Source of the DNA: Pseudobacteriovorax sp.
Lineage (GTDB): Bacteria; Bdellovibrionota_B; Oligoflexia; Oligoflexales; Oligoflexaceae
Direction: 5' to 3'
DNA length: 14,379 bases
Assembly (NCBI GenBank): GCA_050293845.1
Contig: JBNKNM010000143.1
Span: forward strand, 1-14,379
A program made the position numbers and the translations under genes. The first letter of the stretch is position 1. Each line of letters begins with the position of its first letter. The notes beneath the pieces are model-generated. The model had not been told where the DNA came from, made no database searches, and saw only the letters and a list, made by a program, of their open reading frames with translations. Shown piece by piece: positions 1 to 3,642 of this stretch.

Positions 1-60
1 GAATCGCTGGTGCCTAAAGTGGCCCAGGAATCCCCCACTATAGCCGCATCAGCGGTTTAG
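1..60 (+). CDS. tnpB: Probable C-terminal fragment of a TnpB (partial, 5' truncated by the window)
   Basis: Frame 1 reads ESLVPKVAQESPTIAASAV*. ESLV matches the C-terminus (GRESLVS*) of the TnpB at 1877-2914. It could equally be a non-coding MITE-like remnant. Confidence 0.45.
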   Translation, partial: ESLVPKVAQESPTIAASAV

Positions 61-77
61 TGGCGGGAGGACGTCAA
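1..77 (+). mobile_element. Right end of a second IS200/IS605-family (tnpB-type) element, truncated by the window edge
   Basis: 1-77 aligns with the reverse complement of 1829-1894. Shared blocks: GAATCGCTGGTG, TAA, AGTGGCCCAGGAATCCCC and GAGGACGTCAA. GAAT sits at the foot of a subterminal hairpin (CCACTA-TAGCCGC-ATCA-GCGGTT-TAGTGG) and TCAA is at 74-77, the IS608-type right cleavage motif. Confidence 0.85.
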
Positions 78-80
78 TGA

Positions 81-668
81 CTACACACTCATTGTAAAGT
101 TCCAGAAAGCATGTAGTCCAATCGCGGCAATTAACCCGCTTCTAAGAAAGACAATCGTAAGGATTATTGAACCTGGAATATACGTAGTAAAGAATTTAAA
201 AAATATATTCCAAGGTCCAAACTGGCAATGAGCCAAGGTAAATAGCAAAACAGAGACAGTACACAATAAGACTGTATTGATACCTCTATCAGAAAAATAA
301 CCGATTAGAAAGCGTCTGAAAAAAACTTCCTCAAAAATGGGTGATATCACTGCTCTATCAATTATTTTCCATGCATATTCTAACCCAGATACATCTGGCA
401 TTGGTTGTCCTACACCACCTTCAATGGGAGGGACGAACACTAAATAATCATATGTCTTTGTTACTGTGATTAAAGATATAATTGATATTATATAATACAT
501 GCCTATAAGTAATATTGTTTTAAAAAACCCTTGATAATTTTTAAGAATATCATCTTTTTTTAAGATCAATATAGCAAGCATTTCAAAGTAAATTGCTATT
601 GATCTAAAATAAAAATTAGATATCGTTACTAGCATTATTATAACAACATATAATACAATTAAATTCAC
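81..668 (-). CDS. CPBP (CAAX protease/Abi) family intramembrane metalloprotease
   Basis: Motifs EEVFFR (EExxxR), FTLAH (FxxxH) and HAFWN (HxxxN) in a multi-TM 195-aa protein. GTG start 1 nt after the upstream stop, with a GAGG RBS. Confidence 0.9.
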   Translation of the reverse strand: MNLIVLYVVIIMLVTISNFYFRSIAIYFEMLAILILKKDDILKNYQGFFKTILLIGMYYIISIISLITVTKTYDYLVFVPPIEGGVGQPMPDVSGLEYAWKIIDRAVISPIFEEVFFRRFLIGYFSDRGINTVLLCTVSVLLFTLAHCQFGPWNIFFKFFTTYIPGSIILTIVFLRSGLIAAIGLHAFWNFTMSV

Positions 669-669
669 T

Positions 670-1680
670 CTATGCCTCTGGGTCTAGACATCCTGCAATT
701 GATCCACAACCGGGTAAGCTTGGGCTTGGTGTTTCTCCATGCCTGCATGAAATTGATCTATAGCTGTATTTCCAATCTCCATAGTTACATGTTTTATAAG
801 TCAACTGCTTTCTGCCATTCCTACAACGACTCTCACTGTCTAGTTTCTTAATTCCATGTAGGTATCCATTACATCTTTTCGGTGCACATAATGTATTGTC
901 TTCCTCATACCCATCGTCGCAATTAACTTCTGTTACTGCTAGTGATGCATAGCTGCAAGTGTAATGCTGTATGCCATTATCTATATATTTATGTGTAGTC
1001 TCACCAGGCTGATATGCTCTCTCTGGGTAAAAACAAGGAGCATTAAAACTTACAAATTCACCTGTACTAAATAATTGAATCATCTCAATCTCTGGTCCTG
1101 TCTCATCATCCACTAGAATATACCTTGCCTCTCTTGTGAATGTTCCGAGAACATAAACACCCTCTGCAAATTCATAAGGTACTAGCGGTTGAAATTTTAT
1201 AATCATAGTACCATCGTGATGCGTAATTACCATCTTGGTACAGGCATTCGATGCGTTTATAGATAGGCAATGCCTTGTCTCTTTCTCTTTCACTTTTTCA
1301 CCTTTACTATTAAAAATTGTTTCGGTCGTTCTTACATCCGAAACAAACGATCTATCAAAAATTGCTTTCAGTGTGTCAAAACCTTCTTTAAAAAATCTGT
1401 CAATGATATACACAAAAGCTTCATCAGATAGTTCTAATTTTTTTTCCTTGTCTAATTTTGATAGTCCTTCCGCGTCCGAAGGAATGGGATCAGGTGCTTG
1501 ATTTCTTCTGCCTATCTGCTTGCCACCACCAAGAGATTGTCCCACAGCTAGATCGCCACCTGAAACCATTTCATGAAATTCATATGGTCTTAATCTTGGA
1601 CCTGTTACTTCAATGACTTCTGTTTTCATTGCATAACCGTAATTTGAAAAAATGAGTAAACTTAGGAATAGCAATTTCAT
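670..1680 (-). CDS. Secreted cysteine-rich hypothetical protein (336 aa from the ATG at 1680)
   Basis: ATG at 1680 is preceded by AAGAGG and begins a signal peptide MKLLFLSLLIFSNYGYA. 12 Cys, 10 of them in the C-terminal ~120 aa. The ORF track start at 1728 is probably too far upstream. Confidence 0.8.
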   Translation of the reverse strand: MKLLFLSLLIFSNYGYAMKTEVIEVTGPRLRPYEFHEMVSGGDLAVGQSLGGGKQIGRRNQAPDPIPSDAEGLSKLDKEKKLELSDEAFVYIIDRFFKEGFDTLKAIFDRSFVSDVRTTETIFNSKGEKVKEKETRHCLSINASNACTKMVITHHDGTMIIKFQPLVPYEFAEGVYVLGTFTREARYILVDDETGPEIEMIQLFSTGEFVSFNAPCFYPERAYQPGETTHKYIDNGIQHYTCSYASLAVTEVNCDDGYEEDNTLCAPKRCNGYLHGIKKLDSESRCRNGRKQLTYKTCNYGDWKYSYRSISCRHGETPSPSLPGCGSIAGCLDPEA

Positions 1681-1808
1681 TAAAAACCTCTTTAATATGT
1701 TTGTGATATTTCTTTGTATCCCAGTCATAGCTTGACTTTTAAGCCGTGTTAACTCATTTGTAAATTAAATTTAAGATGGTGTTTATTGCCAACAAAGTTT
1801 CAATGACA

Positions 1809-1960
1809 ATTACTAAAAACCAACAGAGTTGACGTCCTCACCCATGGCTAAAGCCAAGGGGATTCCTGGGCCACTATTAGGACACCAGCGATTCACGCCC
1901 GAATCGGAGAATGTTCAGAGCAGCATTCACGTCACGATCATGGACCGCTCCACAATTGCT
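1809..1960 (-). ncRNA. Predicted TnpB omegaRNA: scaffold overlapping the tnpB 3' end down to 1829, guide from 1828 (CTCTGTTGGTTTTTAGTAAT)
   Basis: Right-end hairpins and TCAA boundary seen in sequence; existence inferred from known TnpB systems. The 5' end (1960) is a guess. Confidence 0.55.
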
Positions 1961-2914
1961 GCACACCCACTCTCTTACCCCAAGACCTTTCAACCCTTTC
2001 GGGCCGCTATCTGGAATTTCTTCGCAGCTAGAACAGATCTGAGTTGAGAAGTTCTCGGGAACTTCTACGAATATACGATGCTGCTGCGCGCTCGCTTTAT
2101 ACTTCAGCATCGTTTTGAATGCGGTGGTAGCCGCATCATTGACAGATTTTGCCATTTTAGTTTTGGCTAGTCCCTTTGCTCCAAACTTACCTACAACTAT
2201 TAGGCAGTTTTCTTGGACGATTTCAGTTGAAGCTTTGTGCAGATCGTCCATTCTCTTATTGCGAATCTTTGCGTGGATTTTCCTAGCTTGCCGCTTTTTT
2301 TTGTGCTTCTGCGCACGAGAAAGCTTTCGCTCCATCATCCGATAGTAGCGCCCGTTAGATACCTTTTTGCCACTAGAGAGCGTGGCGACGTCTTTCAGAC
2401 CAAGGTCAATGCCAACTTCAGCGCGAGCATCGTATTGTTCTGGTTCGTATTCGATAGGAATGCAGATATACCAACGACCTCTAGAGTCCTGACAAAACTC
2501 TCCGCTCTTGTAGTCAGATTCGGGAAGACGCTCCGGTTGAAATAGCCAGTAGGACTTTTTATTGAAGGTCACAATACCGTCTTTGAACTTGATACAATCA
2601 TGGCGAAAGGGAATCCACCCCAAAGACTTTCGACCACGCCATCTGAGTTTTCTTTTTTTGAACTGCCGTCTTCGTGTTACATACTCACGACAAACCATTT
2701 GTACAGAAGCAGAATTCAGCCCAAGTTCTTTGTTAGCGCCTTTAGTTAGCTTCTGAAGATCTTGATAACTAAGCCATTCACTGTTTTTCCGTACAGCTTC
2801 GAAAGAGGTTTCATTGCAATAATTCCAGACAAAATTGATTGCCCTAGCCATACGGTTCAGCTCTTTACAAGCTGTACTGTCTTTTATTCGTATTTTTAGG
2901 GTTTTTGTTGCCAT
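1877..2914 (-). CDS. tnpB: TnpB RNA-guided endonuclease (IS605 OrfB), 345 aa, RuvC-II-rearranged type
   Basis: RuvC-I VGIDLG (D170), zinc finger CSSC...CSNC, RuvC-III DRDVNAALNI (D328). Gly242 occupies the canonical RuvC-II Glu position and Glu287 lies in VPENFSTQ. GAGGA RBS. Confidence 0.95.
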   Translation of the reverse strand: MATKTLKIRIKDSTACKELNRMARAINFVWNYCNETSFEAVRKNSEWLSYQDLQKLTKGANKELGLNSASVQMVCREYVTRRRQFKKRKLRWRGRKSLGWIPFRHDCIKFKDGIVTFNKKSYWLFQPERLPESDYKSGEFCQDSRGRWYICIPIEYEPEQYDARAEVGIDLGLKDVATLSSGKKVSNGRYYRMMERKLSRAQKHKKKRQARKIHAKIRNKRMDDLHKASTEIVQENCLIVVGKFGAKGLAKTKMAKSVNDAATTAFKTMLKYKASAQQHRIFVEVPENFSTQICSSCEEIPDSGPKGLKGLGVREWVCSNCGAVHDRDVNAALNILRFGRESLVS

Positions 2915-2939: not shown

Positions 2940-2968
2940 ATCATAGCCAGGAGGTAATACAGTGTCAA
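2940..2968 (-). promoter_or_regulatory. Near-consensus sigma70 promoter for tnpB/omegaRNA
   Basis: Minus strand: TTGACA (2968-2963), 17-nt spacer, TATGAT (2945-2940), about 25 nt upstream of the tnpB ATG. Confidence 0.8.
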
Positions 2969-3384
2969 CGACAAAAAACTATCTAAGATCACATCATCAT
3001 TGCATATATAAGATTACCTATCACTTAGTGTTGGTGACAAAGTACAGGCGAAAGTGCTTCACAAAAGAAATCCTCGATCGCCTTCAAGAGATCTGCAAAG
3101 ATATCTGTGAAAAATGGGATATTGGGCTTATCGAATTCGGTGGAGAACAGGATCACATTCACTTACTTTTGGACTTTCATCCTTCGGCTCAGCCTAGCAA
3201 ATTCGTCAATAATTTGAAGACTGTCAGCTCTAGGCTTATCAGGAGAGATTTCAATGATCATCTTGCAAAATTTTACTGGAAACCTGTTATGTGGACACGG
3301 GCCTATTGCTTGTTATCAGCGGGGGGTGCACCAATTGAAGTCATCAAGCAATATATAGAAAATCAGGAAACGCCTACAGAATGA
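2962..3384 (+). CDS. tnpA: IS200/IS605 Y1 HUH transposase TnpA
   Basis: YHLVLVTKYRR, HUH motif DHIHLL, catalytic Tyr in KQYIENQ; 140 aa; GTG start with AGGAGG RBS. Confidence 0.96.
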   Translation: MSTTKNYLRSHHHCIYKITYHLVLVTKYRRKCFTKEILDRLQEICKDICEKWDIGLIEFGGEQDHIHLLLDFHPSAQPSKFVNNLKTVSSRLIRRDFNDHLAKFYWKPVMWTRAYCLLSAGGAPIEVIKQYIENQETPTE

Positions 3385-3567
3385 TTGCTCACCTCGCTTT
3401 TGCTCGGATCACAATTCGCCTATCCATCTCCCCCTAAGCCTCGACCACCTTCGGTTGTCTACGTTCTAGAGGGAGAATTTCGGCGAGTCATGTTAAACCA
3501 TTTAACTATTGAATATTATTTAGAAAAACCATTCGAAATCATCACCGAAATGAACTCATTTCCTGAA

Positions 3568-3642
3568 TGGCGGCCCCACCAGGAATCGAACCTAGAACTA
3601 ACGCTTAGGAAGCGCTTGTTATATCCGTTTAACTATGGGGCC
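3568..3642 (-). tRNA. tRNA-Arg (anticodon CCT)
   Basis: Reverse complement GGCCCCATAGTTAAACGGATATAACAAGCGCTTCCTAAGCGTTAGTTCTAGGTTCGATTCCTGGTGGGGCCGCCA: acceptor stem GGCCCCA/TGGGGCC, anticodon loop TT-CCT-AA, T-loop TTCGATT, encoded CCA end. Confidence 0.96.

Follow-up and report, generated by a model that had tools for sequence, protein, structure and literature searches.

Two inward-facing IS200/IS605 right ends around an accessory two-gene cassette in a Pseudobacteriovorax genome

Insertion sequences (IS) of the IS200/IS605 group, and the TnpB proteins which they encode, are the closest described systems to the locus considered here, in which two right ends of such elements face each other across a two-gene cassette at the start of contig JBNKNM010000143.1 of Pseudobacteriovorax sp. 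(assembly GCA_050293845.1; the entire contig of 14,379 nt is referred to as the window). In IS605 of Helicobacter pylori the tnpA and tnpB genes are divergent, as they are here, while the right end of IS608 finishes in TCAA, again as here, and its target is TTAC. For transposition, IS200/IS605 elements need both of their ends, left and right, to lie on the same strand. TnpB of ISDra2 binds an RNA composed of the 3' end of tnpB, the right end and ~16 nt of the flank, and the complex cuts the donor joint left by excision when this is flanked by a transposon-associated motif (TAM), as set out, together with the strand requirement, in one report (Karvelis 2021, PMC8612924). Large TnpB clades in which the RuvC-II glutamate is replaced by glycine have also been described, and a different glutamate is predicted from models to complete the active site. 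According to that source, the activity of this RuvC-II-rearranged (RIIr) class was awaiting a test (Altae-Tran et al. 2023, PMC10691335). The TldR proteins (PMC10705468) are TnpB-like, nuclease-dead repressors, which the locus brings to mind through a predicted guide beside a promoter region.

The more complete of the two elements at the locus, termed B, is similar to IS605 and IS608 in several respects. Residues 8-137 of its Y1 HUH transposase (TnpA) align with IS608 TnpA (E 2.6e-28), the closest among solved structures, predicted subterminal hairpins take the place of inverted repeats, and the element is inserted next to a short specific motif. It differs from them in its putative target, TTTAA, and in encoding a short TnpB (345-359 aa in the family) with a rearranged RuvC-II site. 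The elements are further examples of a kind that is already known and do not constitute a new system. Their arrangement is, with good probability, the outcome of two independent insertions of one multi-copy IS200/IS605 family around an AT-rich accessory cassette, combined with the survivorship of insertions which spared genes. Under this explanation, two family members would have inserted independently and in opposite orientation into intergenic DNA on either side of a strain-specific cassette, itself situated in a variable region beside a tRNA-Arg(CCT) gene.

Homologous right ends, element B and the copies of the family

Positions 1-77 (plus strand) and 1829-1894 (minus strand) of the window are homologous IS200/IS605 right ends, facing inward over 1751 nt (78-1828). 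A first-pass annotation, prepared from the sequence alone, had proposed homologous right ends terminating at 77 and 1829, and this proposal holds. Alignment of the first (right end A) to the reverse complement of 1829-1894 (right end B) reveals the common blocks GAATCGCTGGTG..GTGGCCCAGGAATCCCC, together with the last 11 nt (GAGGACGTCAA), the subterminal hairpin being 15 nt longer in right end A than in B. BLAST analysis within the genome returned an E value of 4.6e-7 over the first 35 nt of the window. Furthermore, positions 1-77 are 100 % identical to C67:140-216 (C-numbers denote contigs of G000, the genome of the window; G001, G002 and G013 are relatives), and the 139 nt upstream of these shared 77 nt in C67 run into the 3' end of a tnpB gene, with 93 % identity to B. 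On the grounds of the alignment, the BLAST E value, the identity with C67 and the continuation into tnpB, the likeness of the two right ends is attributed to homology and not to chance.

Read in frame, positions 1-60 encode ESLVPKVAQESPTIAASAV followed by a stop codon, which corresponds to the C-terminal tail of the 359-aa TnpB proteins P0005, P0006 and P0008. With its longer TnpB tail and longer terminal hairpin, A is a member of a second, A-type subfamily, which is also present in G001 and G002. The IS ends are conserved across the copies of the family. Each of the three ends has a predicted hairpin (z against shuffled sequences: left end -1.2, right end B -0.45, right end A -3.87), but that of right end A alone is set apart from the shuffled sequences; it extends over approximately 31-68, with a DNA fold of -18.1 kcal/mol.

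B is a complete autonomous IS200/IS605 element of ~1.66 kb, which runs from 3492 to 1829 on the minus strand and carries both ends as well as tnpA and tnpB. Its features, with those of right end A, are as follows:

1-77, plus strand: right end A, of the A-type subfamily; 1-60 are the last 19 codons and TAG stop of a tnpB of the 359-aa type, and the end finishes in ..GTCAA at 77
1829-1981, minus strand: right end B and predicted omegaRNA scaffold, overlapping the 3' end of tnpB, on the basis of fold statistics
1877-2914, minus strand: tnpB of B, 345 aa, with Pfam PF01385 (OrfB_IS605) and PF07282 (Cas12f1-like TNB)
2940-2968, minus strand: promoter-like site upstream of tnpB, TTGACA-17-TATGAT, matching at 11 of 12 positions, a consensus match only
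2962-3384, plus strand: tnpA of B, 140 aa, encoding a Y1 HUH transposase, divergent from tnpB, with Pfam PF01797 (Y1_Tnp; E 2.5e-44, profile positions 2-121 of 121)
3385-3492, minus strand: left end of B, with a subterminal imperfect hairpin; homology to other copies begins at 3497
3493-3497, minus strand: TTTAA, the putative target site and TAM adjoining the left end, from comparison of left-end junctions

The NCBIfam models concur with these assignments, with TnpB of B scoring 223 bits against guided_TnpB (cut-off 100) and its TnpA 144.5 bits against transpos_IS200 (cut-off 55). Among nineteen distinct left-end junctions in three genomes, TTTAA is exact at fourteen, with unrelated DNA upstream and a conserved CAT... 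after it. We infer from these junctions that TTTAA is the target and, because the target motif would fill this role by analogy with the IS200/IS605 mechanism, that it is also the TAM; B would then have inserted 3' of a TTTAA. The first-pass annotation had itself named numerous copies at such sites as grounds for doubting a link between the elements and the cassette, and left ends are indeed found after TTTAA at sites which are otherwise unrelated.

Searches with both types of right end identified at least sixteen right-end loci in G000. The flanks of the fourteen copies which could be read are all different (14/14), and the same applies to the copies in G001, G002 and G013. Within the taxonomic family, the right end and the 3' region of tnpB occur in 10/22 genomes including G000 (9/21 others), and the left end in 5/22. 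At least sixteen copies and fourteen different flanks are among the grounds on which two independent insertions, put forward in the first-pass annotation as its null explanation, are the best explanation of the locus. Eight right-end loci have 2 kb of upstream sequence assembled, among which B alone is of full length; the other seven comprise remnants (44-104 nt of homology) and, on C54, a mini-element of 369 nt with both ends. Six further right-end loci lie at contig ends, and in the assembled sequence of G000 no tnpB of the family is intact except that of B. The mini-element (C54:13808-14176) has both ends and is geneless, and the solo right-end remnants inside contigs measure ~70-145 nt; the miniature or solo derivatives listed also include C38:1-199, C53:6628-6712 and C249:2886-3029.

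The form in which element A is seen is set by the assembly. G000 comprises 6.68 Mb in 741 contigs, of which the window is C143 in its entirety, and its contig ends overlap one another by exactly 77 nt, as produced by a k=77 assembly. Positions 1-77 of the window are one such 77-mer overlap; a right end of exactly k-mer length at a contig start is an assembly overlap, and position 1 is an assembly break without biological meaning as an end. Element A as seen is a k-mer node common to two copies which diverge exactly at the end of the element. Leftward extension through 77-mer overlaps reached C67:140-216 only, no other retained contig carrying this 77-mer at its end, and the start of C67 matches no retained contig end. 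The junction between A and the cassette is also spanned by a unitig (48-1440) from a separate assembly, at k=31, of the run that is the likely source. Logan contigs from four runs, all belonging to a single study, likewise end inside the repeat, and the junction between B and the cassette recurs in one more run of that study.

There is a realistic chance, a little short of even, that A is itself a short solo right-end remnant or a mini-element without tnpB, in which case the locus would hold no second nuclease gene; this would be a sub-case of two independent insertions. The predominance of remnants and mini-elements (7/8) among the loci with 2 kb upstream assembled, and the single intact tnpB assembled in G000, argue for such a state. 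However, as the 77-mer ends no contig besides C67, A probably shares C67:1-139, the 3' end of a tnpB gene, as its upstream sequence, and A-type ends encode an intact TnpB tail.

The TnpB active site, predicted guides and putative TAM

TnpB of B shares with ISDra2 TnpB the RuvC-I and RuvC-III aspartates, which align with D170 and D328, respectively, and a zinc finger of four cysteines (C294, C297, C318 and C321). It differs at the catalytic RuvC-II position, where Glu278 of ISDra2 aligns with Gly242, and in that the TAM is here deduced from junctions. Both Gly242 and an alternative glutamate, Glu287, are invariant in the 20/20 family members aligned (50-100 % identity), drawn from more than 5,800 proteins at E <= 1e-20. 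Gly242 and Glu287 parallel the replacement of glutamate by glycine, with an alternative glutamate, in RIIr clades such as RIIr-5 (PMC10691335), a likeness at the level of these residues. TnpB of B thereby fits the RuvC-II-rearranged class, and the element which encodes it is autonomous and has kept its tnpA intact. For a protein of this class, that the two nucleases would cut is something we infer.

The region from the 3' end of tnpB to right end B folds better than shuffled sequences (z -3.15), and the consensus fold of eight copies has 44 pairs, five of them with a compensatory change, mostly due to one divergent copy. A structured RNA is thus predicted over the 3' end of tnpB and the right end, as in ISDra2 (PMC8612924), and omegaRNA B would run from the 3' end of tnpB through the right end into ~16 nt of the flank. 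A search with Rfam over the window returned the tRNA only, the predicted omegaRNA region having no family match. Guides can be predicted from the flanks of both right ends:

78-97, plus strand: predicted guide of omegaRNA A, taken from the flank (16-20 nt); its sequence is antisense to the final codons of the CPBP gene and their stop codon (83-81)
1809-1828, minus strand: predicted guide of omegaRNA B, likewise taken from the flank (16-20 nt); it reads as the sense strand of the cassette upstream region

The first-pass annotation had drawn attention to both guides being made of cassette sequence. Its geometry stands, with guide A antisense to the 3' end of the CPBP gene and guide B sense to the upstream region, but the significance attached to this does not, since the same is general to any insertion. 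A guide which consists of an adjoining gene is common to all TnpB elements and in itself no signal; because every such insertion takes its guide from its flank, guides derived from the cassette do not mark it as special. Both 16-mers are unique, and no second genomic site with fewer than two mismatches was found for either 16-nt guide. In the occupied allele, it is GTCAA and not TTTAA that precedes both guide targets. Neither TnpB complex is therefore expected to bind or cut the cassette in this allele, because its target there is preceded by the element's own GTCAA and not by the putative TTTAA motif. Each guide would serve only to cut the joint of TTTAA and flank which remains after excision, whereupon the element would be copied back, and the cassette sequence in the guides would be a by-product of the landing sites.

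The functional suggestions of the first-pass annotation are unsupported. A functional coupling of the elements to the cassette might take the form of read-through from tnpB of B, of antisense action of omegaRNA A on the 3' end of the CPBP mRNA, or of guides which lock the borders of the cassette. Read-through is possible on the sequence, because no terminator-like site was found between the stop codon of tnpB and the cassette on the same strand; with the strong promoter-like site ahead of tnpB and the overlap of guide A with the CPBP stop codon, this is the evidence in favour of coupling. However, the targets in the occupied allele lack the putative TAM and follow GTCAA, and the arrangement is not conserved, as the copies in relatives have other flanks and the secreted-protein gene of the cassette was found in 0/40 relatives searched. 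Moreover, the homing model protects an element and not the DNA between two elements. The guides would not protect the cassette, because loss of the whole segment removes both targets. A functional link is thus very unlikely. TldR-like repression of the cassette promoter was likewise considered and rejected, as the catalytic aspartates and alternative glutamate are retained, tnpA is adjacent, the element is multi-copy, mobile and bounded, and the target lacks a TAM in cis.

Clustering of copies and recombination between them

Several observations weigh against two independent and undisturbed insertions. When sixteen copies were placed uniformly on the real contig set (20,000 trials), a pair within 1752 nt arose with P ~0.06 and an inward-facing one with P ~0.014, a chance estimate to be read in light of the A/B pair having been singled out after the fact. 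The closeness of A and B is mildly unexpected unless insertion is non-uniform. Non-uniform insertion is suggested by a second close pair of right ends, 1393 nt apart on C54, which means that clustering is not peculiar to the cassette, and by the TTTAA density, the low guanine and cytosine (GC) content of the cassette and its location on the variable side of the tRNA gene. The flanks of fourteen copies range from 0.31 to 0.46 in GC content, however, so that the family has no strong general preference for AT-rich DNA. Both insertions also spare genes and lie right at the edges of the cassette, with A just 3 nt past a stop codon; this position could reflect selection or mere survivorship. Furthermore, the half of the picture which concerns element A rests on 77 assembled nucleotides, and, given the mosaic TnpB described below, the arrangement may not consist of two untouched insertions.

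Relative to TnpB of B, the TnpB protein P0006 is identical across aa 84-303, whereas aa 1-83 contain 25 differing residues and aa 304-345 contain six, after which P0006 continues into the A-type tail. Within G000, its parts correspond to C563 (at 99 %), to the middle of B and to C67 (at 100 %). C563 ends in a 77-mer overlap with positions 2589-2665 of the window, and Logan unitigs over 2096-2665 have approximately twice the chromosomal depth with 0-1 mismatches. The mosaic is evidence that IS copies have recently recombined or undergone gene conversion, and the mosaic tnpB may belong to the C67 locus. Separately, an unrelated repeat of at least ~77 nt occurs at many contig ends (at least fourteen matches, among them C563:1-77, C38:1-77, C34, C342, C433, C271, C354 and C156). 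This repeat breaks up the sequence ahead of the P0006-type tnpB and probably represents an end of a different mobile element.

Recombination between IS copies could accordingly be held to have shaped the arrangement itself. Were A to carry a P0006-type tnpB, the two elements would form long inverted repeats, open to inversion and gene conversion. The identical core of ~660 nt which P0006 shares with B, its A-type tail, the tracing of its parts to C563, the middle of B and C67, and the overlap and doubled depth noted above are consistent with such a history. It is nevertheless unlikely, as two A-type right-end junctions (C67 and the window) stand against a read depth which allows for approximately one additional copy of the shared core. 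P0006 lies on an 89-kb database contig, while the secreted cassette protein, P0003, is recorded on the window's own contig alone. No joint which inverts the cassette was seen in contigs, although short-read contigs would be unable to show such an inversion.

Extended further, A would be a mosaic P0006-type element and the cassette would be held between self-repairing inverted TnpB elements, which share the ~660-nt core, exchange sequence by gene conversion and may flip the cassette, with its borders restored by RNA-guided homing and its expression aided by read-through from tnpB of B. This combination is very improbable.

The short-read data were also searched for alternative alleles. In the contigs of the four Logan runs, which drop rare variants, there was no IS-free allele and no joint which skips element B or the cassette or inverts the cassette. 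The sole joint listed connects 13 to 1883 on opposite strands in run X3 and falls within the homology of the right ends. Unitig depth in the likely source run is 8.4 for the cassette and 10.4 for the adjoining chromosome; a search for RNA runs gave none.

As two IS copies flank accessory genes, the locus also resembles a composite transposon. This was rejected, as the right ends of A and B point towards one another from opposite strands and the cassette cannot move as a unit by the single-strand mechanism of IS200/IS605 elements. Limited searches of the literature on paired inward-facing IS605 ends around a cassette found none.

The cassette, its genomic setting and implications

Between the two right ends lies only the cassette, transcribed from the minus strand and followed upstream by element B and a tRNA gene:

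81-668, minus strand: second cassette gene, encoding a CPBP / Rce1-like intramembrane protease of 195 aa, with Pfam PF02517 (E 5.1e-15, profile positions 5-92 of 93)
670-1728, minus strand: first cassette gene, encoding a secreted Cys-rich orphan protein in an open reading frame (ORF) of 352 aa; translation probably begins at the ATG at 1680, which would yield a protein of 336 aa with the N-terminus MKLLFLSLL
3568-3642, minus strand: tRNA-Arg (CCT), the 3' end of which faces element B and the cassette, just beyond the element

The first-pass annotation had described the secreted-protein and CPBP genes, with their upstream region, as the sole content between the ends and had placed the end of A 3 nt past the CPBP stop codon. 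Both descriptions are borne out by the ORF list of 78-1828, which comprises the two cassette ORFs and four short plus-strand ORFs (52-88 aa) nested inside them, and by the 3-nt gap between the stop codon (83-81) and the end of right end A at 77. The stop codon of the first gene and the start codon of the second are 1 nt apart. The NCBIfam CPBP models match the cassette protein below their cut-offs only, and the best of these sub-cut-off matches are to the CPBP proteases of C-terminal sorting systems (MrtJ, MrtS and the PEP-CTERM CAAX type). The secreted protein matches no Pfam or NCBIfam family and has no usable match in the Atlas. Among 5.8 billion proteins searched, P0003 has one homologue, P0004, which is 50 % identical and also 336 aa in length, with conserved cysteine residues. 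A search of genome and metagenome contigs for a locus related to P0004 returned nothing on its DNA context. The secreted protein and CPBP protease may form a substrate-protease or a toxin-immunity pair.

The first-pass annotation had proposed related genomes as the place to seek a link between cassette and elements, and none emerged there. The secreted protein was found in none of the forty relatives searched (0/40), the CPBP protein had matches in one of the forty (1/40), at 28-30 % identity only, and the cassette was not seen together with such an element at any other locus. The GC content of the cassette is 30-38 %, in comparison to 41 % for the genome, and TTTAA occurs at 9.7 per kb in the cassette, whereas the genome has 4.7 and the remainder of the window 3.6. 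Synteny with G001 and G002, whether assessed on DNA or on protein, stops at tRNA-Arg(CCT), and an empty site sought in these two genomes was not seen, since synteny ends at the tRNA. The DNA past the 3' end of this tRNA gene differs among G000, G001 and G002 (window 3493-3642; loci L021 and L022), and the site looks like an integration hot spot.

The biological weight of the arrangement is small, and it can be ascribed to the ordinary behaviour of a multi-copy IS200/IS605 family in a TTTAA-rich accessory region by a tRNA gene. With an autonomous copy, an intact tnpA, many further copies, mini-elements and a putative TTTAA TAM, the family is a reasonable candidate for testing the nuclease activity of TnpB proteins in which glycine replaces the RuvC-II glutamate.

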